Assembly: GCA_965207805.1 (NCBI GenBank) | Contig: OZ242312.1 | Coordinates: 684,748-748,747, forward strand | Length of the DNA: 64,000 nt | Reading direction: 5' to 3' | From: Gemmatimonadota bacterium | GTDB taxonomy: Bacteria; Gemmatimonadota; Gemmatimonadetes; Palauibacterales; Palauibacteraceae | Part shown: piece by piece, positions 6,436 to 57,026 of the stretch | How positions within the stretch are numbered: the first letter of the stretch is position 1 | Layout of the letters: each line of letters starts with the position of its first letter | Notes under the pieces: generated by a model | What the model was told of the DNA's origin: nothing | The model's input: the letters and a program-made list of their open reading frames with translations, nothing else | Database searches by the model: none | Position numbers and translations under genes: made by a program

Positions 6436-6466
6436 GTTTTGCCATGATCGTGTTCGAGGAGGTCAT

Positions 6467-7810
6467 ATGAGGCTCGTCAAGCTGTCCCTGGGGTTCGCCC
6501 TCGCCGTGTGCGCCACGGCTCCTTCCGCCGCCGCCGGCGAGCAGGCGGCGCAGGCCGACGTCACCGCCTTCGTCGACGTGAACGTGATTCCGATGGATTC
6601 CGACCGGATCCTCGCCGGACACACCGTCGTCGTGCGCGGCGACCGGATCGTCGCCGTGGGGCCGGCCGCCGATGTCGACGTGCCGGCCGGCGCCCGCCGC
6701 ATCGACGGCTCCGGGAAGTACCTGATGCCGGGGTTGTCGGAGATGCACGGGCACACGCCGGGCGGCTTCCCGACCGACACGTTCCGCGAGCAGGTGATGT
6801 TCCTCTACGCCGCGAACGGCGTGACGACGGTGCGCGGGATGCTCGGCCTGCCGGGCGACCTCGAGTTGAAGGCGAGGACGAACACCGGCGAGATCTGGGG
6901 GCCGACGCTCTACCTCGCGGGCCCGAGCTTCAACGGCAACTCGGTCACGTCGCCTTCGCAGGCGGCGGATCGCGTGTGGGTGCAGAAGGGGGAAGGGTGG
7001 GATCACCTGAAGATCCACCCCGGGCTCACCGTGCCGGAATACGACGCGCTCGCCGCGGCCGCCGCGCAGGCCGGCATCCGCTTCGGAGGCCACGTCCCGG
7101 CCGACGTCGGGATCCGGCACGCCATCCTCATGGGACAGGAGACTTTCGACCACCTCGACGGCTACATGGAGGAGGCGGGAGGCATCCGCGGCCCCATGGA
7201 CGCGGCGGAGATGGAGGAACTGTTCGCGCTGACGATCGGCGCCCGGGCCTGGGTCGTGCCCACCATGGTCCTCTGGGAAGTGGGCGTCATCGGCCTCGGC
7301 GACCCCGACGCGCTCGCCGCCTATCCGGAGATGCGCTACTGGCCCCCGGAGGGCGTCCAGGGCTGGAAGGACCGGCTCCAGGCGGTCCAGGCGCGCGACG
7401 CATGGGACGTGGAACAGGCTCGGCGGCACGCGAGCAACCGAACGGTGCTTCTAGGCATGATGAACGAGGCCGGCGTGGGTATCCTCATGGGCACCGATTC
7501 GCCGCAGATGTTCAGCGTCCCCGGCTTCTCCCTCCACCGCGAACTCGCGGCGATGGCCGACGCAGGGATGTCGCCGTACGAGATCCTCGTCAGCGGCACC
7601 CGGAACGTCGGCGACTACTTCCAGGCCTACGACACCTTCGGAACGGTGGCCGCGGGCCGACGCGCCGATCTCATCCTCACCAACTCCAACCCCCTCGAGG
7701 ACGTGGCGAACGTGGCGGACCGCGCCGGCGTCATGGTGCGCGGCGTATGGAAGTCCGAGGAAGAGATCCAGCAGGGCCTGGCCGAAATCGCCACCAGCTT
7801 CGGCAACTGA
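6467..7810 (+). CDS. secreted metal-dependent amidohydrolase (COG1228-like)
   Basis: ATG at 6467 with upstream GAGGAGG. Signal peptide MRLVKLSLGFALAVCATAPSAAAG. Amidohydrolase motifs HGHTPGG, HLKIHPG and MGTDSP. Confidence 0.75.
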   Translation: MRLVKLSLGFALAVCATAPSAAAGEQAAQADVTAFVDVNVIPMDSDRILAGHTVVVRGDRIVAVGPAADVDVPAGARRIDGSGKYLMPGLSEMHGHTPGGFPTDTFREQVMFLYAANGVTTVRGMLGLPGDLELKARTNTGEIWGPTLYLAGPSFNGNSVTSPSQAADRVWVQKGEGWDHLKIHPGLTVPEYDALAAAAAQAGIRFGGHVPADVGIRHAILMGQETFDHLDGYMEEAGGIRGPMDAAEMEELFALTIGARAWVVPTMVLWEVGVIGLGDPDALAAYPEMRYWPPEGVQGWKDRLQAVQARDAWDVEQARRHASNRTVLLGMMNEAGVGILMGTDSPQMFSVPGFSLHRELAAMADAGMSPYEILVSGTRNVGDYFQAYDTFGTVAAGRRADLILTNSNPLEDVANVADRAGVMVRGVWKSEEEIQQGLAEIATSFGN

Positions 7811-7830
7811 CGGGCCGGGCCTGACGGATC

Positions 7831-8268
7831 TCAGGCATCGGCCTGAGCGAGACAGTCCGGGCAGTGGCCGAGGAGGTGCACCATCGCGTTGCGGATGGAC
7901 TCGGCCCACGGTCCATCGATCGACAACGCCGCGGCGATCTCCTCCTTCAGACAGGCGACTCGGCCGCAGTCCTCGCACAGGAAGTGCGGGTGGCGATGGG
8001 CGTCTTCGTGGTCTCCCGCGAGCGCGTATCGATCGATGCCGTCCACCCGGCTCACCACGGGAGCGAGGCCGGCCTCACGCAGCTTGACGAGGTTGCGGTA
8101 GATCGTCGCCTGATCCCAGTCCGAGTCGCCGAGCAGGTCGAGCACCTGCGTGAAGGACACCGGACCCTTGGCGTCGGTCAGGATGCGGAGCACCGCAACG
8201 CGCGGCGCGGTTACGCGCAGACCGCGCTCGCGCAGCCTCCGACGGGCGTCGTTCTTCGTGATTCGCAT
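7831..8268 (-). CDS. zur: Fur-family transcriptional regulator, probably the zinc uptake regulator Zur
   Basis: Fur fold motifs HPHFLCEDCGRV and C-terminal HCPDC; 145 aa. Divergently adjacent to a COG0523 GTPase, the classic Zur-regulon arrangement. Confidence 0.8.
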   Translation of the reverse strand: MRITKNDARRRLRERGLRVTAPRVAVLRILTDAKGPVSFTQVLDLLGDSDWDQATIYRNLVKLREAGLAPVVSRVDGIDRYALAGDHEDAHRHPHFLCEDCGRVACLKEEIAAALSIDGPWAESIRNAMVHLLGHCPDCLAQADA

Positions 8269-8313
8269 GAGCCTTCTCCCGCGCGGCGGAACTGACGTCC
8301 GGAGACGCTAGAG

Positions 8314-8342
8314 ACAAGCACTTGCACATGCAAGTCACTTGT
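8314..8342. promoter_or_regulatory. imperfect 29-bp palindrome ACAAGCACTTGCACATGCAAGTCACTTGT in the zur/COG0523 divergent promoter; candidate Zur/Fur-family operator
   Basis: Seen directly in the 8269-8411 intergenic region, with roughly 23/29 positions self-complementary about a central CACATG. The assignment rests on position only. Confidence 0.3.
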
Positions 8343-8411
8343 GTATTTTCTGCGCTCGCAAGCCGCTTGCAGGAGCACTCCGCAGTGAGAAGTGCCGAAA
8401 AGGGAAGTTCG

Positions 8412-9656
8412 ATGAGCAGCGATCCAGGCACCGTTACCCGTGACGAGCGTCTCCCCGTCACGGTGTTGTCCGGCTTCCTCGGAGCCGGGAAGACCACCCT
8501 CCTCAACGAAGTTCTGAACAATCGGGAAGGACGCCGAGTCGCGGTCATCGTGAACGACATGAGCGAGGTCAACATCGACGCGGCCCTCGTGGAGCGCGGG
8601 GGCGCCCAGCTCTCGCGGACCGAAGAGACGCTCGTCGAGATGACGAACGGCTGCATCTGCTGCACGCTGCGGGAGGACCTGCTCGCCGAGGTCTCCCGGT
8701 TGGCCCGGGAGGGGCGTTTCGACTATCTGCTGATCGAGTCCACGGGGATTTCGGAGCCCATCCCGGTCGCCCAGACCTTCACCTTCGAGGACGAGGACGG
8801 TGTGAGCCTCGGCGATATCTCGCGCCTCGACACGATGGTCACCGTCGTGGACGCCGCGAGTTTCCTGAAGGACTACGACGCCGCCGAAGACCTCCAGGAC
8901 CGCGGTGAGTCGCTGGGCGAAGAGGACGAACGGACAGTCACCGACCTGCTGATCGATCAGGTCGAGTTCGCCGACATCATCGTGCTCAACAAGCTCGATC
9001 TCGTCACCGAGGACCATGCGTGTGAGGTCGAGGCCATTCTGCGCGCGCTCAACCCCGGCGCGGAGGTCTACCGGGCGACCCGGGGGCAGGTGCCCCTTGA
9101 GCGCGTGCTCGACACGGGCTTGTTCGACTACGACACCGCGGAAGGCTCCGCCGGCTGGATCCGCGAGCTCGAGGGAGGCCACACGCCCGAGACGGAGGAG
9201 TACGGGATCTCGACCTTCACCTATCGGACTTCGGCCCCGTTCGACGCGGAGAAGCTGTGGGCGTTCCTGAACGACGACGAGAACTGGCGCGGCGTGCTCC
9301 GGTCGAAGGGCTTCTTCTGGGTCGCCGCCGATCACAAGGTCGTATACGAGTGGGCGCAGGCCGGGGGTGTGAGCACCGTCGACCCCATGGGCATGTGGTG
9401 GGCCGCGACACCGAGGGAGTACTGGGACCACCCGGACGGCGAACGGCCGGACCAGCAGCCGAGTTGGCACCCTCGGTACGGGGATCGTCACCAGGCACTC
9501 GTCTTCATCGGTCAGCGGATGGATGAGGCCGCAGTACGCGCGCGACTCGACGCATGCCTGCTCGACGAAGCCCTTGCCGCCGCCGATAGCAGCACCTGGA
9601 CGGGACGTCACAACCCCTTCCCCGAGCTTCAGATGGTCGAGGGGGTGGTCGGATGA
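8412..9656 (+). CDS. COG0523 / CobW-family GTPase, putative zinc metallochaperone (ZigA/YeiR-like)
   Basis: Walker [13 protein letters not shown], metal-binding CICCTLR motif and a CobW C-terminal domain. ATG at 8412 is preceded by AAAGGGAAG. Confidence 0.85.
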
Positions 9657-15043: not shown

Positions 15044-15727
15044 TCAGTCGCCGAACCGGTCCGCCAGCCGTTCCCGAAGCCTGCGCGCGACCGCATCGAG
15101 CACGGCGGCGTCTTCATCCGCGACACCCCGGACCGAGAGCGCGACGCCGGGTGCAATCTCGATCCGCGCCCATCTTTCCACCTCGCCCAGGGGATCGGCG
15201 CCGCAGTCCGCCACCCCCCGGAGCGCGACCAGCAACGCAGCCAGTTCTGAATCATGGGCGGGAGGCGCCGCCGCTTCACGAGGCCAGTCCGGTTCCTGCT
15301 CCCGCACCATCAGCCTGTCTTCGAGCGCGGCATGCCGCGCCCGTGGGGCGGCGAAGGCGACCGGCGCCTCGGCCCGTTCCGCCACGTCCTGCGTTCGTAG
15401 CGGAGACTCCGTTCGGGCGGACCGGGCGGAGAGCAGATCGGCGGTCACGGCGATCCGTCCGTCGGCGACGCCCGTGATCAGCTCCGGCGACGATCCCTCG
15501 AACACGGCGCCGATCTCGCGGAGCGCGGTCGCGGGCACCCTCCCCGCCCCCTCCGCCTCGCGGACCCGTCGAATGAAGAGAAGTCGGTCCCGCACGAGCT
15601 TCGGATAACGGGTCTTCGGACCCCGCCGGCCGACGCGCGGAAGCAGTCCGACCTGCACGTAGTAGGCGATCGTGCGGCGGCTGAACCCCGTCTCCTCTTC
15701 CAACTCCCGGGCCGTGTAGCTGCGCAT
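15044..15727 (-). CDS. MerR-family transcriptional regulator
   Basis: N-terminal MerR HTH YTARELEEETGFSRRTIAYYVQVGLL; 227 aa. Confidence 0.8.
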   Translation of the reverse strand: MRSYTARELEEETGFSRRTIAYYVQVGLLPRVGRRGPKTRYPKLVRDRLLFIRRVREAEGAGRVPATALREIGAVFEGSSPELITGVADGRIAVTADLLSARSARTESPLRTQDVAERAEAPVAFAAPRARHAALEDRLMVREQEPDWPREAAAPPAHDSELAALLVALRGVADCGADPLGEVERWARIEIAPGVALSVRGVADEDAAVLDAVARRLRERLADRFGD

Positions 15728-15856
15728 GCCGTTTCCGCCGTTTCCAATGCGTAAGTGACAAATGCTGTCGTTTACCGATGATAACCGTTGACTTATCTGA
15801 ACCTCTCCGCTACTGTCAACAGCGTATCAACACTGACAATATCAAGGAGGGGAGAG
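15728..15856. promoter_or_regulatory. divergent promoter/operator region between the MerR gene and the downstream unknown gene
   Basis: Locally AT-rich for this genome. Contains TTGACT and TTGACA (minus strand) -35-like hexamers with ~18-19 nt spacers and TTGAC/GTCAA inverted repeats (TTGACttatctgaacctctccgctacTGTCAA ... TGACAA). Strong RBS AAGGAGG at 15845-15851. Confidence 0.3.
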
Positions 15857-16864
15857 ATGAACCAGATCACGACCGCCATCGCCGACCTCGAGATCGGCGA
15901 ACCGACCTTCTGCGGCGGCCTCACGGTGTTCCCCCTGCTTTCGCGGGAGACCTCGGATCTCGATTACGTGCTGCTGGGAGACGGGCTTCGCGAGGACCGC
16001 GTCACCGTGCGCGAGGTGTCCATGGGGGGCAGCGTCCCCGACCTCGAGGTTGAGAACCGGGCCGGCCGTCCCGTGCTCATCGTGGATGGCGAGGAGCTCG
16101 TTGGCGCCAAGCAGAACCGGGTCGCCAACCTCACGCTGCTGCTCCCCGCCGGGAAGACGACGATCATCCCGGTCTCCTGCGTAGAGCAGGGCCGCTGGTC
16201 GTACGACAGCCCGGGGTTCCAGGTGACGGACCGGATGCACTTCGCGAGCGGTCGCGCGGAGCGATACGCGAGTGTGCAGGAGTCGATGCGCAGCGAGGGG
16301 ACCCGGCGCTCCGATCAGAGCCGGGTGTGGAGTTCGATCGACGACAAGGCCGTGGCGATGGACGCCCCATCGGAGACCGGGGCCATGAGCGAGATCTTCG
16401 AGCGGCACGCGGCGGCTCTGGACGACTACGTACGGGAAGTGGAGGCCGCTCCGGATCAGCTCGGCGCCATCTTCGCGGTGGCGGGCGGCAACTACGGACT
16501 GGACCTCTTCGACCGTCACGCCACCCTCGCGGCGTTCCTCCCCAGGCTGGTGCGGAGCTACGGCGTCGACGCGCTGGAACGGCGCTCGGAGGGGGACACG
16601 GTGGCGCCGGCCTCCGCAGCGCGGAAGTTCCTCGACCGCTTGCGAGCGGGATCGTTCGATGACCACCCCGCAGTTGGCCTCGGGCGCGATGTGGGGATCG
16701 TCGCCGAACGCGCCATCGGAGGCGCGCTCATCGTGGACGAAACCACCGTGCACCTGACGGGGTTCTCCAACCCCCGGGCCGGCCGCGGCGAACGCGCCGG
16801 AGAGCAGGTGTATGCGAATTACCACCAGCGGCGCGACACCCTCCGCCGGCGGCACGCGAGCTAG
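15857..16864 (+). CDS. uncharacterised conserved protein (no confident family assignment)
   Basis: ATG at 15857, 6 nt after AAGGAGG. 335 aa. No motif recognised. Adjacent to an MFS pump and divergent from MerR. Confidence 0.55.
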   Translation: MNQITTAIADLEIGEPTFCGGLTVFPLLSRETSDLDYVLLGDGLREDRVTVREVSMGGSVPDLEVENRAGRPVLIVDGEELVGAKQNRVANLTLLLPAGKTTIIPVSCVEQGRWSYDSPGFQVTDRMHFASGRAERYASVQESMRSEGTRRSDQSRVWSSIDDKAVAMDAPSETGAMSEIFERHAAALDDYVREVEAAPDQLGAIFAVAGGNYGLDLFDRHATLAAFLPRLVRSYGVDALERRSEGDTVAPASAARKFLDRLRAGSFDDHPAVGLGRDVGIVAERAIGGALIVDETTVHLTGFSNPRAGRGERAGEQVYANYHQRRDTLRRRHAS

Positions 16865-16959
16865 TAGTTTCATGCGACCCGCCAGCGCGTTGGCGGCGTT
16901 CCGGCTAACGATCGCGTGGAGGACGGGTGAAAGCTCCCGGGCGGGGCCGCGAGGCGGCG

Positions 16960-18156
16960 ATGGTCTTCATCTTCATCACCGTCTTCATCGACGTGCTGGG
17001 GATCGGGATCATCGTCCCCATCCTCCCCGAACTCATCAAGGAGTTCACTGGGGGGAGCACGGCGCGCGCGGGGCGCTGGTTCGGGGTGCTCGCGGCGACC
17101 TACGCCGTCACCCAGTTCTTCTTCGCGCCCATCCTGGGGTCGCTCTCGGACCGGGTCGGGCGCCGGCCCGTCATCCTGATCTCGCTCTTCGGCCTCGGGA
17201 TCGACTACATCATCATGGGGCTCGCGCCCTCCATCGGCTGGCTGTTCGCGGGGCGGCTCATCGCAGGCGTGATGGGCGCGAGCATCACTACGGCCAACGC
17301 CTACATCGCCGACGTGTCCGAACCCGAGAAGCGGGCCCGGAACTTCGGACTCATCGGCGTCGCGTTCGGCCTCGGCTTCATCTTCGGCCCCGCCATCGGG
17401 GGCGTGTTGGGCGGCATCGATCTGCGGCTCCCCTTCTTCGCCGCGGCGGGACTCGCCCTCGTGAACGCGCTATACGGCGTTTTCGTCCTCCCGGAATCGC
17501 TGCCTCCGGAGAAGCGCGACGCCTTCAGCTGGCTGAAGGCCAACCCGATCGGGAGCCTCTTCGTCCTGCGCTCCTATCCCCTGGTGGCCGGGCTCGCGGT
17601 GTCCTTCGTGTTCATGATCCTCGCTCAGCGCGGGCTCGAGACCGTCTGGGTCCTCTACACGGGCCACAAGTTCGGGTGGGACGAACTCGCGAACGGCCTG
17701 TCGCTGGCGCTTGTCGGACTCATGGCGGCGATCGTCCAGGGAGGACTCGTTCAACCCATCATCAAACGCACCGGAGAGCGCCGCGCGATCCTCGGCGGGC
17801 TCGTGCTGGCCGTGATCACCTACCTGGGTTACGGCCTCGCCACGCAGGGGTGGATGCTCATCGCCTTCATCATCTTCGGCTCCATCGGCGGCGTGGCGGG
17901 CCCGGCGCTCCAGAGCCTCGTGGCGGGGGTCGTAGAGCCGCGGGACCAGGGGAAAGTCCAGGGCGGCCTCCAGTCGCTCATGAGCCTGACGAGCATCGCG
18001 AGCCCCCTGATCTTCACCAGCCTCCTGTTCAGCTACTTCACGTCTCCCGCCGCCCCGGTGGAGTTGCCGGGCGCGCCCTTCCTGCTCGGCGCCGTCATGT
18101 ACGCCACAGCCTTCGTGGTCGTGTTCCGGCTCTTCCGCCGCATCCCGGCCGCGTAA
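16960..18156 (+). CDS. MFS transporter, Tet/TCR-like drug:H+ antiporter family
   Basis: Twelve predicted TM segments. MFS motif A (GSLSDRVGRRPVILISLFG). Start chosen at ATG 16960, since the longer ORF adds an Arg-rich leader. Confidence 0.8.
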   Translation: MVFIFITVFIDVLGIGIIVPILPELIKEFTGGSTARAGRWFGVLAATYAVTQFFFAPILGSLSDRVGRRPVILISLFGLGIDYIIMGLAPSIGWLFAGRLIAGVMGASITTANAYIADVSEPEKRARNFGLIGVAFGLGFIFGPAIGGVLGGIDLRLPFFAAAGLALVNALYGVFVLPESLPPEKRDAFSWLKANPIGSLFVLRSYPLVAGLAVSFVFMILAQRGLETVWVLYTGHKFGWDELANGLSLALVGLMAAIVQGGLVQPIIKRTGERRAILGGLVLAVITYLGYGLATQGWMLIAFIIFGSIGGVAGPALQSLVAGVVEPRDQGKVQGGLQSLMSLTSIASPLIFTSLLFSYFTSPAAPVELPGAPFLLGAVMYATAFVVVFRLFRRIPAA

Positions 18157-18228: not shown

Positions 18229-20385
18229 CTATTCGGACGCGCCGAGTTGCTGAAGGAGGAAGGCGAGTTCCATCGCGGCGTTGCGCACGTTGCGGCTGAA
18301 AGAGCGGCCGCCGGCGTGGCCCGTGCGCGGGTCGTAGTCGAGGATCACCGGTAGCCCGGAACTCGAGGAGGCCTGCAGGCGCGCGGCCATCTTGCGGGCC
18401 TGCAGCGGGGGCACGCGGGTGTCGAGGTCTCCCTGTGTGAGCATGACCGCCGGGTAGGCCACGCCATCGCGCACGTTCTGGTACGGGGAGAAGGTGCGAA
18501 GCACCTCGAACTCCTCGGCCACCGCCGCGTTCCCGTATTCCAGGAGCGCCGGCATGTTGTTCGTGTCGGTGAACTGGTAGAAGCGGACCATGTCGAGGTC
18601 GGGCAGGCCGCAGTAGACGGCGCGGAAGAGGTCCGGCCGCTTCGTGAGGGAGGCGGCGACGAGGAGCCCGCCGTTGCTCCCGCCGCGGATCGCGAGCCGG
18701 TCGGGGTTCGTGTAGCCGTTCTCGACCAGCCACTCCGCCGCGGCGATGAAGTCGGCGAACACGTTCGGCTTGTTCTCGAGCATGCCGGCCCGGTGCCATT
18801 CCTCGCCGAACTCGCCGCCGCCCCTCAGCGTCGCCATCGCGTACACGCCGCCCTGTTCCAGCCACGCCGCGGCGCGGGCGTCGAAACGGGGCAGCAGGTT
18901 CACGTTGAAACCGCCGTACCCGTACAGGAGCGCGGGGCTTCGCCCGTCCAGCGCCAGTCCCCGGCGGTGGGCGACGTACATCGGGGCCCGCGTCCCGTCC
19001 TCCGAGGTATACCAGACCTGCTTCAGCTCGTACTCCGACCCGTCAAAGGGGACGGATGACGGCCGCCACTCCTCCGTCTCCATCGTCTCGAGGTCGAGCT
19101 TGAGGATGGTCGAGGGAGTGAGAAGCGAGGTCAGCGTGAGGAGGGCCTCGGTTCCGTCATCTCCGTGCGAGCGCAGCGTCGCCACATGGTGGTCCAGGAT
19201 CGGGATCTCGCCCTTCACGGCGCCATCTGGCCCGTAGCGCACGATCCGACTGCTCACGTCGCGCAGGTAGTCGGCGTACAGGTCGTCGCCGATGAACCGG
19301 TATCCGGTGAGGAGATCCTCCCCCTCCGGCAGCACCTCCCGCCACCGCGCCGGGTCCGGATCGGGGTCATCGAGATCCACCGCGAGGATGCGGTTCTTCG
19401 GCGCGTCCAGATTCGTGAGCAAATAGAGTTCGTCGTCGACGAAGCGGGTGCTGAAGCGGGCGGGCGCGCCGACGATGAGCGGTGCGGGTGCCGTCCCGGA
19501 ACGGAGGTCGTGCAGGTACACGTCCGTCCGTGCCCAGCCGTGCTGTACGGTGTAGACGTGCCACCGGCCGTCGCCCCCCTGCGAGAAACCCACGAAGCGC
19601 TCGGGACCGTGCCCCTCCCCGAACAGCTCCTCGTCCTCGTCGGGGCCGGTCCCCAGCCGGTGGTAGCGGATCCGTGCCCCCGTCTCCCGCGACCGGCGGC
19701 TGTAGTAGAAGCCGTCCCCCTCCGGATCGAAGGAGACGTTTCCGTACAGGTAGGTCGGCAGGCGGTCGGGCAGGTCCTCGCCGCTCTCCAGGTCGCGGAC
19801 GCGGTACTCGCGCTCGTCCCGTCCCCCGTCCCGGATGGCGTAGATCATGAGACGGCCGTCGGGCGAGAAGTCGATGATGCTCACGCTGGTCGTGGCGTCA
19901 TCGCGGAGATCGAGCGGGTCGATGACGACCTCGAACTCGCCTTCGGGGTCGACCGGGATCTCCTGCGGTTCTTCGGGCGCCGGCCGGCGGTAGATCGCTC
20001 CGACCTCCCGCCCCGGCTTCCGGAGCGAGAAGTACTCGTAATCTCCCGCCCGTCGCGGAAAGATCGCCCCGGGCGCGTCCATCAGCTCGCGCAGCCGTCC
20101 CTCCAGGTCCGCCCGCAGCGGCGTGTCGCCGACGATGCGTTCCGCGTAGGCGTTCTGTTCGGCGATCCAGGCGCGCGTCTCCGGGCTCTCCTGGTCCTCG
20201 AGCCACCGGTAGTCGTCGGTGAACTCGACGCCGTGCAGGGTGTCGACGACGGGAATCCGGGCCGTCTCGGGCGGGGGTGGCCAAGCCTCGCACGCCGCAA
20301 GGCAGACGGCGAGCGCGGCCAGCCGAAGCGGCGGCAGAGCACGGCCGGCGGGCCCGGCGCGGGCGCGGGGTGTCGAGTCCGCCAT
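18229..20385 (-). CDS. prolyl oligopeptidase (S9A family), secreted/lipoprotein
   Basis: Beta-propeller region plus an alpha/beta-hydrolase domain with the catalytic Ser motif GGSNGGLL. N-terminal signal LRLAALAVCLAAC. ATG at 20385. Confidence 0.85.
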   Translation of the reverse strand: MADSTPRARAGPAGRALPPLRLAALAVCLAACEAWPPPPETARIPVVDTLHGVEFTDDYRWLEDQESPETRAWIAEQNAYAERIVGDTPLRADLEGRLRELMDAPGAIFPRRAGDYEYFSLRKPGREVGAIYRRPAPEEPQEIPVDPEGEFEVVIDPLDLRDDATTSVSIIDFSPDGRLMIYAIRDGGRDEREYRVRDLESGEDLPDRLPTYLYGNVSFDPEGDGFYYSRRSRETGARIRYHRLGTGPDEDEELFGEGHGPERFVGFSQGGDGRWHVYTVQHGWARTDVYLHDLRSGTAPAPLIVGAPARFSTRFVDDELYLLTNLDAPKNRILAVDLDDPDPDPARWREVLPEGEDLLTGYRFIGDDLYADYLRDVSSRIVRYGPDGAVKGEIPILDHHVATLRSHGDDGTEALLTLTSLLTPSTILKLDLETMETEEWRPSSVPFDGSEYELKQVWYTSEDGTRAPMYVAHRRGLALDGRSPALLYGYGGFNVNLLPRFDARAAAWLEQGGVYAMATLRGGGEFGEEWHRAGMLENKPNVFADFIAAAEWLVENGYTNPDRLAIRGGSNGGLLVAASLTKRPDLFRAVYCGLPDLDMVRFYQFTDTNNMPALLEYGNAAVAEEFEVLRTFSPYQNVRDGVAYPAVMLTQGDLDTRVPPLQARKMAARLQASSSSGLPVILDYDPRTGHAGGRSFSRNVRNAAMELAFLLQQLGASE

Positions 20386-20404
20386 GGCGCCTCCTGTCAG
20401 GCGG

Positions 20405-21280
20405 TCAGGGGGTGACGGTGACCCGGACGTAGGCGTTGCTCCAGCAGCACTGGTCTCCACCGCTGCTGTCGTTCGCGTCCCAGTTGTCGACGCGCGCGCG
20501 CAGGATGTATTCGCCCGGCTCACTGAACGTCGCCGCGGTCGTCGTCTCGCCGGTCCCGCCCTCGACGGTGATCTGCCACGGTTCGAACTCCACCGGCGCG
20601 GCGGGCCCCTGGTGCTTGAACCAGGTCACCTCCACGTCGACCACCTGGTTCACGAGATCCTCGGGGTCGCGGACCGAGACCTCCTCGGTCCACAGCCGCA
20701 ACGTCAGCGGCTCGCCCACCTGAGCCGTGCGCGGCTCGCCCCACACGCCCTGGACGTGCTGGCCCGCCGGCCCTTCCGGGTCGAATCGCACCAGCGGCGG
20801 CAGCGACCCCATGGCACGCGGTCCGTAGTCAAGTTGCAGCGCGGGGGCAAAAACGCGGGCCGGCACGGGATACGTCACCCCGTTCGAGGTGATGGTCCAC
20901 ACGACGCGCTGCTCGCCATCACCGTACGATGCGGGCACCGTGACCGAGAACACGCCCCGGTCCCGTCGCGGCCGCACCGGAAAGTGCGTCGGCTGTGCCC
21001 CGTCGAACTCGGCCGGCTCGATGAAGTTATCCGGACCGAACGGGATTTCGATGACTTCCTCGGTGTTCAGATTGAAGTAGCCGAACGAGAAGGTGAAGGT
21101 GCCGTCGTCATTCCGGTACCAGCCCTCGAAGAAGGGCGCCACGGGCTCGCCCTTCGGCGGGATAGGCGCGAGCGGAAGGCGCTGCACCTGCTGGGCATGA
21201 ACGGGCGCCGGCCCCCCGATCAGGGCGACCGGCGCCACCTGGGCTGCGACCAGGGCGGCCGCGATATGTACGCTGCGCAT
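20405..21280 (-). CDS. secreted hypothetical protein
   Basis: Signal peptide MRSVHIAAALVAAQVAPVALIGG. No motifs recognised. Lies 8 nt downstream of the cytochrome c fusion gene and 20 nt upstream of the prolyl oligopeptidase, consistent with an operon. Confidence 0.5.
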   Translation of the reverse strand: MRSVHIAAALVAAQVAPVALIGGPAPVHAQQVQRLPLAPIPPKGEPVAPFFEGWYRNDDGTFTFSFGYFNLNTEEVIEIPFGPDNFIEPAEFDGAQPTHFPVRPRRDRGVFSVTVPASYGDGEQRVVWTITSNGVTYPVPARVFAPALQLDYGPRAMGSLPPLVRFDPEGPAGQHVQGVWGEPRTAQVGEPLTLRLWTEEVSVRDPEDLVNQVVDVEVTWFKHQGPAAPVEFEPWQITVEGGTGETTTAATFSEPGEYILRARVDNWDANDSSGGDQCCWSNAYVRVTVTP

Positions 21281-21288
21281 GCCTTGGC

Positions 21289-22674
21289 TCAGTTGTCGTC
21301 GTTGCTGTCGTCGTTATCGTCGTCGGTCGCGAGTTTCGCCTCCCGCTCCTCGACGAGCCGCTGGTAGCCTTCCTCCGTGAGGTGCGTCACGGCGAGCCAC
21401 GCGTGCGACATCTCATCCCCCGTGCGCGCGCCGCGCGCGTACCAGATCTCCGGATCGGGGGTCAGTTCGTTCTCCGCCGTGTTGTCGTACCACCCGGTCA
21501 TGACGAGCACCGTCCCGGGCGGGAGCAGCGGCGCCACGTCATCCTCGTAGATGTAGCTGTGGTGCCAGCGGGCGTCGAAGTCCGTGACCATGCTGATGAG
21601 TTCGAGCCTGCCGTCGGGGTAGAGCGCCTGGATCGACATCGCGTGCAGATGCACGTGTCCGTGCGGCTGGAAGCTGTCGAGTCTCACCGGGTGGTCCCAG
21701 CGATAGAACCCCTGCGTCATCGCGGTCCCTCCCGGCGCCAGCGCGATGTCCCCCCTGAGGGGATAGAGGCGCAGATCCTGCTGGAACTCGGGCTTGTAGC
21801 CCTCCTCGTGGAACCAGATCCCGAGCTCGACCTGGTCGCCGGGCACGTCGTATCCCATGGGATAGTAGTGCGCGTCCCACTCGATCATGTCATTCACCTT
21901 CAGGAGCCGACCCGCGTCCGTCGGCACGATCTCGCCGACCTTGCCCATCGCGTACTCCGACAGGCTCTGGATGCGCTGGTACTCCCCTTCCTCGTTGAGC
22001 CTGAGCAGGCGCGGGATCGCGTGATGCACGACCTGACGCCCGGCGGGGAAGGAGGGGCGCGTTTCGAACGCCATCACCCAGCGGTCCTCCTCGAGTCCCG
22101 TCGGCACCCGCGGCCGCCACCAGGTGTCTCCGCCCTCGGCCGGGACGTCAAAGGGCTTCGACTTGATCACGTGATCGGGCGGGCCGAGGATGTCCTCAAG
22201 CTGCCACTTTTGCTCGTTCGGCCACTCGATGGGGGGCGGCAGGTCGGCCGGATCCCCTTCGGGCGCCCCGGCGTCGGCCCAGGCGACGACCGTCTCGATG
22301 TCCTCCTCGCTCAGCCGCCAGTCATCCTTGATGTCCTGGATGCCGACGCCCGTGTCGAGGTGGAACGGGGGCATGAGCCGCTTCGAGACCAGCTCCTTCA
22401 TGCGAGACGCCCAGCGGCGCGTGTCCCTGTAGTCGAGGAGCGGCATCGGACCCACCGATCCCGGCCGGTGGCAGTTCTGGCAGTTCGCCTGGAGGATGGG
22501 AGCGACGTCTTTCGAGAACGTGACATCCGCCTCGGAACCTCCGGCGCCGTTCGCGGCCGGGCCCTGTCCGGCGAGATCCCGGAACGTGAGACCCAGGGCC
22601 AGGGGCATGATGAAGACGGCGAGGGCCGTTGCATGCGACCAGGCATGGCTCGAGTGACGATGCGATCCACGCAT
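21289..22674 (-). CDS. secreted fusion protein: mono-haem cytochrome c domain + copper type II (PHM/DBH-like) monooxygenase-like domain + acidic tail
   Basis: CQNCHRPGSVGPMP haem-binding CXXCH. Downstream His clusters are spaced like PHM CuH/CuM sites (VVHHAIP ... HGHVHLHAMS). C-terminal DDDNDDSNDDN. The monooxygenase assignment is motif-based inference. Confidence 0.5.
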   Translation of the reverse strand: MRGSHRHSSHAWSHATALAVFIMPLALGLTFRDLAGQGPAANGAGGSEADVTFSKDVAPILQANCQNCHRPGSVGPMPLLDYRDTRRWASRMKELVSKRLMPPFHLDTGVGIQDIKDDWRLSEEDIETVVAWADAGAPEGDPADLPPPIEWPNEQKWQLEDILGPPDHVIKSKPFDVPAEGGDTWWRPRVPTGLEEDRWVMAFETRPSFPAGRQVVHHAIPRLLRLNEEGEYQRIQSLSEYAMGKVGEIVPTDAGRLLKVNDMIEWDAHYYPMGYDVPGDQVELGIWFHEEGYKPEFQQDLRLYPLRGDIALAPGGTAMTQGFYRWDHPVRLDSFQPHGHVHLHAMSIQALYPDGRLELISMVTDFDARWHHSYIYEDDVAPLLPPGTVLVMTGWYDNTAENELTPDPEIWYARGARTGDEMSHAWLAVTHLTEEGYQRLVEEREAKLATDDDNDDSNDDN

Positions 22675-22873
22675 GAGTCCTCCTCCTCCTGATGGAACTA
22701 CTCCGCTGCCGCTGCCGGCGACTCCTTATTTAATCCACGGATACAGTGCGAAGAAACGTCGCCTGCGTGCAAGGAGACGTTGCGTACCGCGAAACGCGCA
22801 TCCACGATGGAGTGTTATCCTTGCCGGACACCGAACGGCGAACTGCGGAAGAGAGAACAGTGAGAGCGGACGG

Positions 22874-24940
22874 ATGATGAAGAACCACTGGAGCTGGCGA
22901 CCGAGCAGCGCCCTTCTTCTCCCCCTTCTCTTCGGAGCCATCGCGAGCGCCCCCGCCGCGGCGCAGGGCCCGGGCGTGGAGGGAGCCGCGTGGACCTACC
23001 TCGGGGGCGACGCCTGGCACACCCGCTACACACCGGCGACGCAGATCGATGCGTCCAATTTCGAGAGCCTCGAGGTCGCGTGGCGCTGGGACGCTTCGAG
23101 CTTCGGGCCGAGCACGGCGCGGGCCACGCCGTCCTACGTCGACGGGAAGATGATTACGGTCACGGGCGAGAACCGGCACGTCATCGCCCTCGACCCCTCC
23201 ACGGGAAGACTCCTGTGGAGCTTCGCCGAACCCATGACGTGGCGGCACGAGTACTCGATGCGAAAGGCGTACGGCAAAGGCGTCGCCTATGCCGAGGTCG
23301 ACGGACGCGGCGTCGTCTACATCCTCAGTCCCGGGTTCTTCCTCTACGCCCTCGACGCCGACACGGGACAGCCGCTCGAGAACTGGGGCGAGGCGGTGCC
23401 GCTGCCGGGATTCCCGTCCTCGGGGACGGTGGACCTGGTGGCCGACCTCATCGAGGGCTGGGGGCCGTGGGAGAACCTGAACCAGGAATACGACCCGGAT
23501 CAGGGAATGCCGCTCGAGATCGGCTACATCACGTCGTCTTCCCCTCCCATCGTCGTGAACGACGTGGTCGTCGTCGGCAACTCCGCGGAGCAGGGCTACA
23601 ACCAGACCCGGAAGGAGATGGTCCCAGGTGATATCCTGGCCTACGATGCCCGCACCGGCGAGTTCAAGTGGAAGTTCCACATCATCCCGCGGCCGGGCGA
23701 GTTCGGGCACGAGACGTGGGAGAACGACGCCTGGCAGTGGACGGGTGACGTGTCCCCCTGGGCGCCGCTCTCGGCGGACCCCGAACTCGGACTCGTCTAT
23801 CTCGTCACGAACGGCGCCACGATCGACTATTACGGCGGCTTCCACCCCGGCGACAACCTGTTCGGCACGAGCATCGTCGCGCTCGACGTGGAGACGGGAG
23901 AGCGCCGCTGGCATTTCCAGTTCGTGCACCACGACATCTGGAACTACGATACGCCGACCGCGCCCCTCCTCATGGACGTGGTCGTGGACGGCCGGCCGAT
24001 CAAGGGCGTCTTCCAGGCGACGAAGCAGTCGTGGCTGTACGCGCTCGACCGCGAGACGGGCGAGCCGATCTGGCCCATCGAGGAGCGGCCGGTTCCGCAG
24101 TCGAAGGTGCCGGGCGAGAAGCTCGCCGAAACCCAGCCGCACCCGACGTGGCCCCTGCCCTACGACCTGCAGGGCCGCACCGAGCAGGACCTCATCGACT
24201 ACACGCCCGAACTGCGCGAGATGGCACTCGAGTACGCACGGGAGAACGACCTCTTCGTGCCGCTCTTCAACCCGCCCACGCACGTCGGGAACCCCGATGG
24301 CGAGGGGGCGGCGCTCATCTGCCCCGGCGGTGGCGGGGGCGCGAACATCACCGGGCCGCCCGCCGCGGACCCCGTGAACGGGATCGTCTTCGTCACGTCG
24401 ACCAGCGGGTGCTCGCCGGTCATGGTGGCGCCGGGGATCGAATCCGACCTCGACGGCCCGGACCAGACGGGCGTCACCCACTCCGAATTCTCTCGCGCGA
24501 TCGGCGTCGTGACGGAGAGCACGGCGGACCAGGCGACGGTCGAGGGGCTGAGGATCTGGAAGGGCCCGGTGGGGCGGATCACGGCGATCGACGTGAACAC
24601 GGGCGAACACCTGTGGATGATCCCGCACGGGGACGCGCCCGAGCGGCAGCAGGCGGTGATCCGCGACCATCCGATGCTGCAGGGAGCGGACGTGAATCCG
24701 AACCAGGGCCGACGCGGCCATTCCGCCATGGTTGCAACTCCGACGCTCCTTCTTGCGTCTGGACAGACGAGCGATGGGACGCCGCACCTGTTCGCGATCG
24801 ACAAGCGGACCGGCGAGCGCGTGGGGCAGGTGGAGTTGCCGGGCAACACGCGCTACGGAATGTCGAGCTGGGTCCACGAGGGCAAGCAGTATGTGATCAT
24901 CCAGCTGACCGACGGACTTGCGGCGCTGGCCCTGCCCTGA
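22874..24940 (+). CDS. PQQ-dependent dehydrogenase (quinoprotein alcohol/sugar dehydrogenase family), secreted
   Basis: Signal peptide MMKNHWSWRPSSALLLPLLFGAIASAPAAA. Repeated W-containing propeller motifs and a DxW...W pattern typical of 8-bladed PQQ propellers; ~688 aa. Confidence 0.7.
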   Translation: MMKNHWSWRPSSALLLPLLFGAIASAPAAAQGPGVEGAAWTYLGGDAWHTRYTPATQIDASNFESLEVAWRWDASSFGPSTARATPSYVDGKMITVTGENRHVIALDPSTGRLLWSFAEPMTWRHEYSMRKAYGKGVAYAEVDGRGVVYILSPGFFLYALDADTGQPLENWGEAVPLPGFPSSGTVDLVADLIEGWGPWENLNQEYDPDQGMPLEIGYITSSSPPIVVNDVVVVGNSAEQGYNQTRKEMVPGDILAYDARTGEFKWKFHIIPRPGEFGHETWENDAWQWTGDVSPWAPLSADPELGLVYLVTNGATIDYYGGFHPGDNLFGTSIVALDVETGERRWHFQFVHHDIWNYDTPTAPLLMDVVVDGRPIKGVFQATKQSWLYALDRETGEPIWPIEERPVPQSKVPGEKLAETQPHPTWPLPYDLQGRTEQDLIDYTPELREMALEYARENDLFVPLFNPPTHVGNPDGEGAALICPGGGGGANITGPPAADPVNGIVFVTSTSGCSPVMVAPGIESDLDGPDQTGVTHSEFSRAIGVVTESTADQATVEGLRIWKGPVGRITAIDVNTGEHLWMIPHGDAPERQQAVIRDHPMLQGADVNPNQGRRGHSAMVATPTLLLASGQTSDGTPHLFAIDKRTGERVGQVELPGNTRYGMSSWVHEGKQYVIIQLTDGLAALALP

Positions 24941-26540: not shown

Positions 26541-27722
26541 ATGACGAAACAGCGAACTGCTGGAATCGGCTCCGCACTTTTCGTGGCGGCCGGCATGATG
26601 CTCGCGGCCGGACCGCTGGCGACCGCGGCGGCGCAGGAGATGGACGAACGTTGGCTCGCCTGGATGGGTTGCTGGCAGCCCGTTCGAACCTCGACGAGCG
26701 CGGACGCGCCCGAATCGCTGCTCTGCTTCCAACCGAGCGCGGAAGAAGCCGGCGTCGAGATGATCGCGGTCGAAGACGGCGAGATCGCGTCCCGGGAAGT
26801 CGTGCGGGCGGACGGACAGCCCCGCGAGGCGACCCTGGAGGGATGTAGCGGATCGCGCCGCGCGGTCTTCGCCTCGCGCCCGGGCCGGGTGTTCATGGAT
26901 ATGGACCAGGTCTGCGAGGGCGGCGTCGACCGATCGTCGAGCGGGATGTTCGCGATGATCTCGTCCGACTCCTGGATCGACGCACGGGTCGTCACCGTTG
27001 GCGGCGAGAAGATGACGTGGGTGACGCGATACCGGCTGGCCACGCAGAGCCAGGCCGAGGCCGTCGGCCTGGGTGAGATCGCGGCCGACCGGAGCATGGC
27101 CGTGCGCTCGTTGCGACTCGCGGCATCCGGACGGTATTCGGTCGACGACATCATCGAGGCGCAGTCTCACGTGGATCCCGAGGCCGTGGAGGCCTGGATC
27201 GTCGAACACGAGACGCCTCTCGCGGTCGACGCCGACCGGCTCGTCCAACTCGCCGACGCCGGCGTGTCGGAAGGGGTCATCGACATGATGATCGCGCGGA
27301 GCTATCCGGAGCGCTTCGCGGTGTCCACGGGCGGCGACGGCGGCGAACGGCCCGGGCTCGGCTACGGCGGCTACTACGATCCGTTCTATGGGGGCTACGG
27401 TTGGGGTTATCCATACTACAGCCGTTTCGGCTACCGTTACGGTTACGGCTACTCGCCCTTCGGCTTCGGATACGGCTATCCCTACGGGTACGGCTACGGC
27501 TACGGCTATGGTTACGGGCCGACGATCATCCGCACACAGCCCGCGAACAGCGGCGGCCGGGTGATCAGCGGACGCGGCTACAGCAGCGGAACCTCCAGAA
27601 TCGGAACGCGTCCGACCGGGTCTTCGCGGGGGACGGCGTCGATCGGTACCTCGGGAGGCCGGTCGAGCGGGGGGAGCTCGACGGGACGGACGGCGCGGCG
27701 GCGCGGCGGCGGAGGTCTCTGA
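26541..27722 (+). CDS. secreted protein with a Cys-containing N-terminal domain and a C-terminal Gly/Tyr-rich low-complexity region followed by a Ser/Gly/Arg/Thr-rich tail
   Basis: Signal peptide MTKQRTAGIGSALFVAAGMMLAAGPLATAAA. C-terminal GYGGYYDPFYGGYGWGYPYYSRFGYRYGYGYSPFGFGYGYPYGYGYGYGYGYGP encoded by GGCTAC hexamer-like repeats. Confidence 0.5.
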   Translation: MTKQRTAGIGSALFVAAGMMLAAGPLATAAAQEMDERWLAWMGCWQPVRTSTSADAPESLLCFQPSAEEAGVEMIAVEDGEIASREVVRADGQPREATLEGCSGSRRAVFASRPGRVFMDMDQVCEGGVDRSSSGMFAMISSDSWIDARVVTVGGEKMTWVTRYRLATQSQAEAVGLGEIAADRSMAVRSLRLAASGRYSVDDIIEAQSHVDPEAVEAWIVEHETPLAVDADRLVQLADAGVSEGVIDMMIARSYPERFAVSTGGDGGERPGLGYGGYYDPFYGGYGWGYPYYSRFGYRYGYGYSPFGFGYGYPYGYGYGYGYGYGPTIIRTQPANSGGRVISGRGYSSGTSRIGTRPTGSSRGTASIGTSGGRSSGGSSTGRTARRRGGGGL

Positions 27723-34519: not shown

Positions 34520-34650
34520 GGGCCGAAGGGTGCGCGGACGGCTCGGGCGGCGCAATCCCGCCGGCGCGGCGGCCCGTCGCGCCAAAACGGCGCACAGGTT
34601 GCGCCACGCGGCGACCCGTGAACACCATGAACACCCAGCAAGGAGTGCGT

Positions 34651-55808: not shown

Positions 55809-55898
55809 GGAACGCTCTCCCACGCTGAGGGTGAGCGTTTACAGTGGATCTTCCCGTTCCGGGAGGCAACGATCCCGGACAGAACGCAGAGGGCGGCC

Positions 55899-57026
55899 AT
55901 GAGAGACGGCATCCGGCGCGTGATCTTCCTCTTTCCGATCGTTCTTTCGGCGTGTTCGAACCCGGGGGCGGGCGCCCCCGCCGAGGGTGGCCCCCGGGAG
56001 GGTGGCGTGCCGACGTTCGCGGTGGATCCGGGCTGGCCGCGCGAGATGCCGAACCTGTGGATCATGGGATCCATCACGGGCGTGTTCGTCGACGCGCGCG
56101 ATCACGTCTGGGTCACGCACATCCCGGAATCGCTGACGCCGGAGGAGACGTCCGCCGTGCAGGACCCGCCTATCGGCACCTGCTGCGTCCCGGCCCCGGT
56201 CGTGACCGAGTTCGATCCCGAGGGGAATCTCGTCCAGGGGTGGGGCGACCCCGCGACGCAGGACGTGTCCGAATTCCCGCGCAACGCGCACGGCATCTTC
56301 GTCGACCACAACGACTACGTGTGGGTGGGCACCTACCGGCACCACCGCGTGATGAAGTTCACGCGCTCCGGCGACCTCGTGATGACGATCGGCCGCTACG
56401 ACGAAAACGCCGGCAGCGACGACACCGAGCTTCTCGGCGGCCCCGCCGGCATCTGGGTGGACCCGGAGGACAACGAGGTTTTCGTCGCCGACGGCTATCA
56501 GAATCGCCGCGTCGTGGTCTTCGATGGCGAGACCGGAGCCTACCTCCGCCATTGGGGCGCCTACGGCGAGCCGCCGGACGACGCCTACGAGTACGACTAT
56601 GCGGGGCGGACGCCGGACTCGGAGCCGCCGCGCCAGTTCTCCACTGTCCACGACCTCACGGGATCGAACGACGGTCTCATCTACGTCGCCGACCGCCGCG
56701 GGAACCGGATCCAGGTGTTCGATCAGGCGGGCGCGTTCCACGCCGAGAAGATCGTGGCGCCGGCCACGCGCGCCTCGGGCTCGGCGTTCGTCGTCGCCTT
56801 CTCACCCGACGCCGAGCAGCGCTGGCTCTACCTCGCCGACGGCACCAACCACAAGGTGTGGATCCTGCGCCGAAGCGACCTCGAGATCGTGGGCGAGTTC
56901 GGCCGCGGCGGCCGCCAGTTAGGTCAGTTCCTGCGCCCGCACGGGATGAGCGTCGATTCCCACGGCAATATCTACGTCGGCGAAGCCTCCACCGGCCGCC
57001 GGATGCAGCGTTTCACGCCCCGTTGA
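55899..57026 (+). CDS. NHL-repeat beta-propeller protein (peptidyl-alpha-hydroxyglycine alpha-amidating lyase-like), lipoprotein
   Basis: Lipobox VLSAC. NHL-type repeats (HGIFVDHNDYVWVGT, PAGIWVDPEDNEVFVADGYQNRRVVVFD, DGLIYVADRRGNRIQVFD, HGMSVDSHGNIYVGE). Confidence 0.65.
   Translation: MRDGIRRVIFLFPIVLSACSNPGAGAPAEGGPREGGVPTFAVDPGWPREMPNLWIMGSITGVFVDARDHVWVTHIPESLTPEETSAVQDPPIGTCCVPAPVVTEFDPEGNLVQGWGDPATQDVSEFPRNAHGIFVDHNDYVWVGTYRHHRVMKFTRSGDLVMTIGRYDENAGSDDTELLGGPAGIWVDPEDNEVFVADGYQNRRVVVFDGETGAYLRHWGAYGEPPDDAYEYDYAGRTPDSEPPRQFSTVHDLTGSNDGLIYVADRRGNRIQVFDQAGAFHAEKIVAPATRASGSAFVVAFSPDAEQRWLYLADGTNHKVWILRRSDLEIVGEFGRGGRQLGQFLRPHGMSVDSHGNIYVGEASTGRRMQRFTPR

Follow-up and report, generated by a model that had tools for sequence, protein, structure and literature searches.

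The stretch analysed here, called the window, comprises 64,000 nucleotides of a sponge-associated Gemmatimonadota bacterium (contig OZ242312.1, positions 684,748 to 748,747). Two adjoining minus-strand genes of the window, at 21289..22674 and 20405..21280, probably encode a copper monooxygenase of two subunits, periplasmic and O2-dependent, that belongs to the class of PHM (peptidylglycine α-hydroxylating monooxygenase) and DBH (dopamine β-hydroxylase). The enzyme would be driven by a haem of its own and is probably fed by a pyrroloquinoline quinone (PQQ)-dependent dehydrogenase, whose gene lies next to it. The two genes are referred to as the cassette, the 461-amino-acid product of the first as the fusion enzyme, and the 291-amino-acid product of the second as the partner. 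The large subunit would be composed of a Sec signal, a mono-haem cytochrome c domain of class-I type, and a PHM-like core, and the proposed enzyme would be a non-coupled binuclear copper monooxygenase. PHM and DBH are usually regarded as ascorbate-dependent enzymes of animals and algae. The family described here is bacterial and very large, carries the ligand sets of both PHM copper sites joined in each case to a covalent haem, and is missed by standard annotation.

Haem and PHM-like domains of the fusion enzyme

The haem domain of the fusion enzyme (22255..22530, minus strand) covers approximately residues 49-140. It contains the haem motif CQNCH at residues 65-69 (C65, C68, and H69), encoded at 22468-22482. 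In an alignment of 182 sequences, the CxxCH motif is kept in 175 of 175 and Met101 in 177 of 177 non-gap relatives. Met101 is the probable axial (sixth) ligand of the haem. The haem region is helical in the AlphaFold2 model. Against the Pfam family Cytochrome_CBB3, the window protein scores 21.4 bits, with a cut-off of 27, and the homologous haem domains of distant relatives score 34-37 bits, over the cut-off. A cytochrome c Pfam match at E ≤ 0.01 is present in 29 of 38 close relatives. The fusion of a CXXCH haem domain to a PHM-like region, which had been proposed in a first-pass annotation of the window, is supported.

The core of the fusion enzyme (21379..22182, minus strand, residues 165-432) has the two-β-sandwich fold of PHM and DBH. 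The AlphaFold2 model, built on an alignment of 38 relatives, has a predicted local distance difference test score (pLDDT) of 73.6; in it, two β-sandwiches come after a helical domain at the N-terminus. In a Foldseek search of the PDB, the best 31 matches were all rat PHM or human DBH, with E values of approximately 1e-11 over approximately 300 aligned columns that span both β-sandwich domains. The template modelling scores, normalised to the target, are 0.51-0.61 for PHM and 0.36 for the longer DBH chains. The matches after the first 31 are generic jelly rolls with E values above 7e-6.

The same relationship was found by profile alignment. A family profile of 182 sequences (residues 150-461) was aligned by hhalign to rat PHM, the sequence of which was checked against PDB 5wm0. 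The local alignment has a probability of 89.9%, an E value of 1.7e-6, and a score of 49.3, compared with 14.1 ± 3.3 (maximum 22.2) for 30 shuffled PHM sequences. The global alignment scores 37.45 over 284 columns with real PHM and 3.0 with reversed PHM. Chance would not be expected to produce such a match.

All six copper ligands of PHM have a counterpart in the core. H217 and H218 pair with PHM H107 and H108, and H269 pairs with H172, which together form the CuH site. For the CuM site, H338 and H340 pair with H242 and H244, and M422 (within DEMSHAW) pairs with M314 (within DEMCNLY). The CuH ligands of PHM are confirmed by PDB entries of the mutants H107A, H108A, and H172A, which are described as without CuH. 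H242, H244, and M314 bind CuM, and CuH supplies the electrons (PMC9064607). Among the 182 relatives, which extend down to 28% identity, the CuH-type ligands H217, H218, and H269 are kept in 181, 181, and 182 sequences, and the CuM-type ligands H338, H340, and M422 in 182, 181, and 179. The histidine clusters pointed out in the first-pass annotation, HH (217-218) and HGHVHLH (338-344), are both present. Within the second cluster H338 and H340 alone are conserved, the third CuH histidine is H269, and the CuM methionine is M422 rather than one following the H.H.H cluster. An unrelated fold without the PHM ligands, which would have spoken against the proposal, was not seen: PHM and DBH are the best structural matches, and the six ligands co-align. 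These comparisons support a core of PHM/DBH type with both copper-site ligand sets intact, and copper binding is predicted from them.

In the proposed enzyme the CuH-type site would serve electron transfer and the CuM-type site would handle O2 and substrate. In the animal enzymes both coppers are reduced by ascorbate, and the periplasm is without ascorbate. With a haem c fused to a core of PHM/DBH type, the natural reading is an intramolecular electron supply that replaces ascorbate, as the first-pass annotation had suggested, and the fused haem most likely hands single electrons to the CuH-type site. Such a built-in, spectroscopically visible donor would make the family a natural system in which to study how electrons pass from CuH to CuM, a long-debated question.

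The pocket differs from that of PHM. Six positions near the CuM-type site (Q336, H371, H424, W426, M319, and R414) are fixed within the window subfamily only. Three of them replace the substrate anchors of PHM (R240 to Q336, N316 to H424, and Y318 to W426); these changes are subfamily-specific, and the positions vary in distant relatives. PHM R240 binds the carboxylate of the peptide through a salt bridge (PMC9064607). Because the three anchors are changed, a glycine-extended peptide substrate is not indicated. Enzyme families whose substrates have diversified are expected to look like this, with the catalytic scaffold constant and the pocket variable.

The fusion enzyme thus shares with PHM (the core of PAM, peptidylglycine α-amidating monooxygenase) and DBH, both described by PF01082 and PF03712, the fold and the six ligands in their order and spacing (HH…H and HxH…M), and with PHM the DEM motif around the methionine ligand. 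In addition to the altered anchors, it differs in being bacterial and periplasmic, in carrying an N-terminal haem c in place of ascorbate or of the DOMON domain of DBH, and in having an obligate partner, which is separate or fused. The acidic low-complexity C-terminal tail remarked on in the first-pass annotation is present as ATDDDNDDSNDDN (21292..21330, minus strand) and is lineage-specific, being variable in relatives and missing from most.

More than 4,500 homologues of the fusion enzyme were found, which are at best named "c-type cytochrome", "mono/diheme cytochrome c family protein", or "hypothetical". At 50% identity the family forms 12,544 clusters (E ≤ 1e-3), of which 995 are at E ≤ 1e-30. 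No description of bacterial cytochrome c-PHM proteins was found in the full-text literature.

Many distant relatives (32-36% identity) carry an N-terminal AhpC/TSA-redoxin domain and assorted C-terminal domains. Among P0132, P0133, P0208, P0223, P0247, P0209, and P0265, the haem and PHM-like module is found fused to redoxin/AhpC-TSA domains, and also to α/β-hydrolase (S9-like), SGNH lipase, ankyrin, tetratricopeptide (TPR), EF-hand, or glycogen-binding carbohydrate-binding (CBM) domains. Two copies of the module are present in P0133. On a Chondrinema plasmid, the redoxin is encoded by a gene of its own upstream of the PHM-like gene, which RefSeq names "hypothetical protein". No fusion of a PHM-like protein to an NHL or PQQ domain was found among 20 long relatives scanned.

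These redoxin-type proteins, which occur in Bacteroidota, Planctomycetota, and others, are uncharacterised and are labelled "redoxin domain-containing protein" or "hypothetical". Their haem and PHM-like region is homologous to that of the window protein and has the same invariant ligands. They differ in the extra N-terminal thioredoxin-fold domain, in the varied C-terminal domains (α/β-hydrolase, SGNH, ankyrin, TPR, and CBM), and in other pocket residues. The window subfamily, by contrast, has no redoxin domain and is paired with the 291-residue partner.

Partner protein and PQQ dehydrogenase

The partner gene (20405..21280, minus strand) encodes a protein with a signal peptide and two β-sandwich domains that matches no known family. 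In 80 genome loci recovered with the fusion enzyme, a partner homologue adjoins the fusion gene in 78, and in the remaining two the contig ends there. Dereplication of these loci at 85% identity gave 28 lineages, and the adjacency holds in 27 of them. Natural fusions of partner and enzyme exist in both orders, with the partner at the N-terminus in P0127, where the fused open reading frame (ORF) was confirmed on the contig, and at the C-terminus in P0131 and P0136. In P0140 the enzyme is flanked by two halves of the partner, a split arrangement. What the first-pass annotation had listed as an incidental "unknown secreted protein" is the sole invariant neighbour of the fusion enzyme and is sometimes fused to it. 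We take the partner to be an obligate companion of the enzyme and a subunit of it. It would be present in stoichiometric amount and may bind the substrate or act as a cap.

Neither Pfam nor NCBIfam holds a family for the partner, and its more than 4,000 homologues are all named "hypothetical". A new family of obligate partner proteins is defined here. Its invariant motifs are APFFEGW, THFPxxPRRDRG, ALQLDY, and ANDSxGGDQCCW. A Foldseek search with the partner model returned generic Ig/PapD-like domains and no functional relative. A match to YtkA-like proteins (E 0.14) was too weak and was dismissed.

The gene of an exported PQQ-dependent dehydrogenase (22874..24940, plus strand) is divergent from the cassette. 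The first-pass annotation overlooked this gene, which is the most frequent third neighbour of the cassette. The intergenic region between the two (22675..22873) is 199 base pairs long, as measured from the start codons, and contains no match to the sigma-70 consensus. The dehydrogenase matches the β-propeller family PF01011 with an E value of 7.4e-152 over the whole profile (eight-bladed) and has partial matches to TIGR03074 and TIGR04528. Its closest PDB relatives are quinohaemoprotein alcohol dehydrogenases, with E values down to 5e-34. No CxxCH motif is present in its sequence, and a haem domain of its own is absent. A PQQ dehydrogenase without its own haem needs a cytochrome c acceptor, for which the fused haem domain of the neighbouring enzyme would be the obvious candidate. 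In the proposed system the electrons would probably come from this dehydrogenase and flow through the fused haem to the coppers.

By raw count, 13 of the 28 lineages have a PQQ dehydrogenase gene within 10 kb of the cassette, and in six of the 13 the distance is no more than approximately 1.1 kb. The orthologues (51-59% identity) occur in four arrangements. The gene is divergent in the window and in L046, and directly downstream of the partner in L055 and L057. In L086 it stands farther along the same strand, in the same operon as genes for a γ-glutamyltranspeptidase (GGT) and an M24 peptidase.

The same logic of dehydrogenase, cytochrome, and copper monooxygenase outside the cytoplasm is found in the fungal systems that activate lytic polysaccharide monooxygenases (LPMOs). 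There a PQQ-dependent pyranose dehydrogenase with a cytochrome (AA12-AA8) serves the AA9 enzymes, and cellobiose dehydrogenase likewise serves an LPMO. The LPMOs differ in their histidine-brace copper fold, and the cytochrome of the window system is a haem c fused to the monooxygenase rather than to the dehydrogenase. One cassette lies in an uptake locus of SusC/SusD type (P0107, JGI 3300043331). In this locus it directly follows genes for an extracytoplasmic function (ECF) sigma factor, FecR, two TonB-dependent receptors, and a SusD-like protein, which is a nutrient-uptake architecture.

Several observations weigh against a copper monooxygenase with these electron sources. The Pfam models of the class, Cu2_monooxygen and Cu2_monoox_C (PF01082 and PF03712), with which the first-pass annotation had proposed to check its reading, match neither the window protein nor the 38 close relatives. 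Cu2_monoox_C gives sub-threshold matches in distant relatives only (E 6.5e-4 to 9e-3). NCBIfam has no match for the fusion protein, and Pfam has the sub-threshold Cytochrome_CBB3 match only. Searches of the PDB by sequence, with the single sequence or a shallow profile, did not return PHM; hhalign with the 38-sequence alignment did not recover it either, and the 182-sequence profile was required. The identity to PHM is just approximately 12-15%, and the confidence of the fusion-enzyme model is moderate. The partner model has a pLDDT of 62 and is confident in the C-terminal, Ig-like half alone. Approximately half of the lineages have no PQQ dehydrogenase gene within 10 kb, and a large sponge-associated Longimicrobiales group is among them. 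In favour, redoxin/AhpC-TSA, another electron-donor module, is fused to the enzyme or encoded just upstream of it in distant relatives. The sub-threshold Cu2_monoox_C scores of a few distant members also tie the family to PHM by sequence.

PAL-like lipoprotein and competing explanations

In eukaryotes PHM acts together with the lyase PAL, and animals amidate their peptide hormones in this way. A protein that resembles PAL is encoded in the window at 55899..57026 (plus strand), 33 kb from the cassette. It is a 375-residue lipoprotein with the lipobox LSAC and the NHL repeats (Pfam E 4.8e-16) of a six-bladed β-propeller, and it matches PAL in the PDB (3fvz) with an E value of 5e-12. In a BLASTP alignment of 244 residues (E 2e-15), it is 27% identical to rat PAL, the sequence of which was verified against 3fvz and 5wm0. 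By hhalign, the profile of its family and PAL align with a probability of 98.5% and an E value of 1.5e-15 over 223 columns, which cover blades 2-6. H131, Y200, H251, R266, and H348 correspond to PAL H585, Y654, H690, R706, and H786, and each is kept in 121 of 121 relatives. H585, H690, and H786 are the zinc ligands of PAL, with Y654 as the catalytic tyrosine and R706 as the active-site arginine. The N-terminal 125 residues or so fall outside the alignment; R533 of PAL and the Ca site of blade 1 are on that side. The protein differs from PAL in that it is a bacterial lipoprotein encoded on its own, with no fusion to the PHM-like enzyme. It also matches the SGL/gluconolactonase family of Pfam (4.6e-13), and the public names of its family are "hypothetical", "sugar lactone lactonase YvrE" (JGI), and "YncE". 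Judged by its sequence, the lipoprotein is a true homologue of PAL, as the first-pass annotation had supposed, and it is possibly the second enzyme of a pathway.

Of the 28 lineages, 6 have an NHL gene no farther than 10 kb from the cassette. In L082 the genes of the fusion enzyme, partner, and NHL protein are contiguous on one strand. From the other side, the enzyme or a paralogue of it is found in 6 of the 80 loci retrieved by the PAL-like protein. A cassette paralogue divergently adjoins an NHL gene of the window type (69% identity) in L161. In L149, L152, and L153, the NHL, partner, fusion enzyme, and PQQ dehydrogenase genes lie within 11 kb, with the NHL gene approximately 5 kb from the enzyme and the dehydrogenase beside the cassette. 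Orthologues of the cassette-type PQQ dehydrogenase also accompany PAL-like genes, either divergently adjoining them (L099, L106, L107, and L114) or directly upstream (L053 and L069). The cassette, the PQQ dehydrogenase, and the PAL-like gene form a three-way association, in which the linkage between cassette and NHL gene is moderate.

Hydrolase genes also recur around the cassette. The gene downstream of the partner in the window (18229..20385, minus strand) is the last of the operon here and encodes a prolyl oligopeptidase (S9A) lipoprotein. It matches the Pfam families Peptidase_S9_N (6.8e-74) and Peptidase_S9 (7.2e-53), aligns with PDB 2bkl over its full length (E 7.5e-130), and carries the serine motif GGSNGG of GxSxGG type. 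It has the N-terminal β-propeller and the α/β-hydrolase domain of its class. The first-pass annotation identified this proline-specific endopeptidase correctly and made it a member of the system. An orthologue is present in 11 of the 80 loci, adjoining the cassette in 10 and approximately 7 kb away in L039, and all 11 are from close Palauibacter relatives. With adjacency so confined, the peptidase was ruled out as a core member of the cassette, and it is an addition to the operon specific to this lineage.

Other S9 peptidases recur occasionally (L089 and L055, and as a fused hydrolase in P0208). In L086 and L087 a creatininase-family gene sits between the two cassette genes, and in the large Longimicrobiales group an amidase-signature enzyme is encoded approximately 700 nucleotides upstream of the cassette. 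Amidohydro_3, GGT, and M24 genes also recur beside the cassette in other lineages. Since the PAL-like lyase, S9 peptidases, creatininase-family proteins, amidase, amidohydrolase, GGT, and M24 peptidase recur as neighbours, peptides or other amides are suggested as the substrates.

Three of these neighbourhoods deserve description in their own right. The richest operon context was found in L086/L087 (10001-19782; marine, Tara), where one same-strand run consists of the fusion enzyme, the creatininase-family gene, the partner, two small ORFs, the γ-glutamyltranspeptidase, the PQQ dehydrogenase, and the M24 peptidase. In L089 an operon of S9 peptidase, Rieske protein, and PQQ dehydrogenase (4388-9001, minus strand) is divergent from the cassette, and genes for epoxide hydrolase and glyoxalase come next; a further electron carrier of the system may be the Rieske protein. 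The neighbours in the large Longimicrobiales group (ABC transporter, epimerase, PGA_cap, phosphoribosyltransferase, and DUF1800/DUF1501) do not form a coherent pathway.

A bacterial counterpart of PAM is plausible, although we hold it to be less likely than not. In such a system, the PHM-like enzyme would act on glycine-extended peptides or N-acylglycines and hydroxylate the carbon bound to the amide nitrogen, and the PAL-like protein would cleave the resulting carbinolamide into a primary amide and glyoxylate or another aldehyde. Prolyl oligopeptidase-type peptidases would supply or consume the peptides. The invariance of the five PAL active-site residues argues for such a role, as do the contiguous trio of L082, the divergent pair of L161, the clusters of L149, L152, and L153, and the linkage counts in both directions (6 of 28 and 6 of 80). 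The appearance of the same PQQ-dehydrogenase orthologue by the cassette or by the PAL-like gene and the recurrence of C-N bond hydrolases next to the cassette point the same way. However, the carboxylate and backbone anchors of PHM are replaced, the two genes are 33 kb apart in the window, and in 22 of the 28 lineages the 10 kb around the cassette contain no NHL gene. PAL Tyr654 is replaced by His in the products of the L082 and L053 NHL genes. The NHL family is also much better conserved than the cassette, at 72-81% identity between many taxa, which points to a wider role, and its source names are "sugar lactone lactonase YvrE" or "hypothetical". The adjacency of the prolyl oligopeptidase is limited to one genus. 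Of the PAM analogy drawn in the first-pass annotation, the PAL homologue and its neighbourhood linkage are supported, and the glycine-extended peptide substrate, whose anchors are replaced, is not indicated. The co-occurrence it had proposed to look for is, in gene neighbourhoods, moderate for the NHL gene and confined to close Palauibacter relatives for the prolyl oligopeptidase.

The findings suggest that chemistry of the PHM-plus-PAL type may operate in periplasmic catabolism of bacteria, and they provide a candidate function for the widespread, highly conserved bacterial PAL homologue and for an orphan subfamily of PQQ dehydrogenases. A hydroxylase-then-lyase N-dealkylation has been described in bacteria for methylguanidine, which is demethylated by the 2-oxoglutarate dioxygenase and dedicated lyase MdgH/MdgL; the authors cite eukaryotic PHM/PAL as the sole comparable case known to them (PMC12508155, 2025). 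MdgH/MdgL differs from the system discussed here in that its hydroxylase depends on iron and 2-oxoglutarate, its lyase is unrelated, and it is cytoplasmic.

An extension of this chemistry that we consider improbable joins the cassette, the PAL-like lyase, and the PQQ dehydrogenase in a self-sustaining periplasmic cycle of oxidative N-dealkylation. The haem-copper enzyme would hydroxylate the carbon adjoining an amide or amine nitrogen, and the lyase would cleave the carbinolamide into an amide or amine and an aldehyde (glyoxylate or formaldehyde). The aldehyde would then be oxidised by the PQQ dehydrogenase, which would pass the two electrons back to the fused haem c. Overall, the cycle would consume O2 alone and run without a reductant from outside, as in N-acylglycine + O2 → primary amide + oxalate. 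In that event, PAM-type chemistry would have ancient roots as a catabolic route widespread among bacteria and would not be a eukaryotic invention for peptide hormones.

It is also improbable that the fusion protein serves mainly to accept electrons from the PQQ dehydrogenase as its dedicated cytochrome c, acting as a relay or as a small oxidase that reduces O2 at copper without hydroxylation, with the NHL protein as a lactonase for a sugar lactone made by the dehydrogenase. The dehydrogenase is the commonest third neighbour and lacks a haem domain, its gene directly adjoins the NHL gene in L053, L069, L099, L106, and L107, and the SGL/gluconolactonase match and the name given to JGI relatives would suit a lactonase. 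The complete CuM-type site, with its methionine, is nevertheless strictly conserved beside a subfamily-specific pocket, which argues for substrate chemistry. The methionine ligand of CuM is catalytically essential in PHM (PMC9064607). Half of the cassettes also have no PQQ dehydrogenase nearby. No enzyme of the PHM class is known to be an oxidase. SMP30-type lactonases have acidic and amide metal ligands, and the NHL protein has instead the three histidines, tyrosine, and arginine of PAL.

Very unlikely is a third alternative, likened to the two-gene system MbnH/MbnP, in which the partner is a substrate into which the haem-copper enzyme installs a modification, such as a hydroxylation or a cross-link of a conserved residue: strict pairing of the two genes, the unusual invariant motifs of the partner (the vicinal CC of GGDQCCW, and THFP), and an N-terminal half not confidently folded alone would be in keeping with it, but no modification site could be identified in the partner, the fusions in both orders and the split form fit a stable complex better than an enzyme-substrate pair, and the recurrent PQQ dehydrogenase, PAL-like gene, and hydrolases suggest the turnover of a metabolite. 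We retain the two-subunit monooxygenase as the preferred reading, in which the O2 chemistry is predicted.

Gene layout and other genes of the window

The three minus-strand genes described in the first-pass annotation as an operon are all present. The gap between the fusion enzyme and partner genes is 8 nucleotides, as had been stated, and the gap between the partner and peptidase genes is 19 nucleotides rather than 20. The fusion gene, taken from the ORF list, has the Shine-Dalgarno-like sequence AGGAGGAGG before its ATG, and AAGG precedes the partner gene. The peptidase, read from the ATG at 20385, is 718 residues long within a longer ORF of 764 residues; AGGAGG lies 6 nucleotides before this ATG, which is 19 nucleotides past the partner stop codon. 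No terminator-like hairpin was found on the minus strand at either gene junction. Export signals, either a signal peptide or a lipobox, are present on all five proteins (fusion enzyme, partner, peptidase, PQQ dehydrogenase, and NHL lipoprotein).

The nearest genome locus encodes a fusion protein at 96% identity. The related metagenome-assembled genomes are Palauibacter species named for sponges, and the host group is Candidatus Palauibacter or near it.

Two minus-strand genes lie near the PAL-like gene. An acetamidase/formamidase gene (54651-55823; FmdA_AmdA, 8.8e-34) is divergent from it, and it is suggestive that an enzyme which hydrolyses primary amides should neighbour a lyase which may form amides. 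The two genes were rejected as a conserved pair, as they were found together again in L053 only (70% identity) and in none of the 80 metagenome loci of PAL-like genes. The second gene (52016-54661) encodes a DUF5916 protein (8.5e-54). Relatives of it are encoded near cassette or PAL-like genes in the P0107 locus, L059, L073, L103, L154, and L165, and at a guess the protein would be an outer-membrane component for the same substrate.

On the other side of the operon, a MerR-like regulator (15044-15727, minus strand) is divergent from an ARPP-1 domain protein (15788-16864, plus strand; Pfam 7e-96). The ARPP-1 gene is followed by a major facilitator superfamily (MFS) transporter gene (16927-18156, plus strand), which is convergent with the peptidase gene. 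A secreted protein of 393 residues (26541-27722, plus strand) contains a long Gly/Tyr-rich C-terminal repeat (YGYGYGYGYGYG) and has no Pfam match. The α (Pfam 1e-89) and β subunits of a nitrile hydratase are encoded at 34618-36071 (plus strand). The α subunit starts with a twin-arginine-like signal, which suggests that this nitrile hydratase is exported, and that would be unusual.

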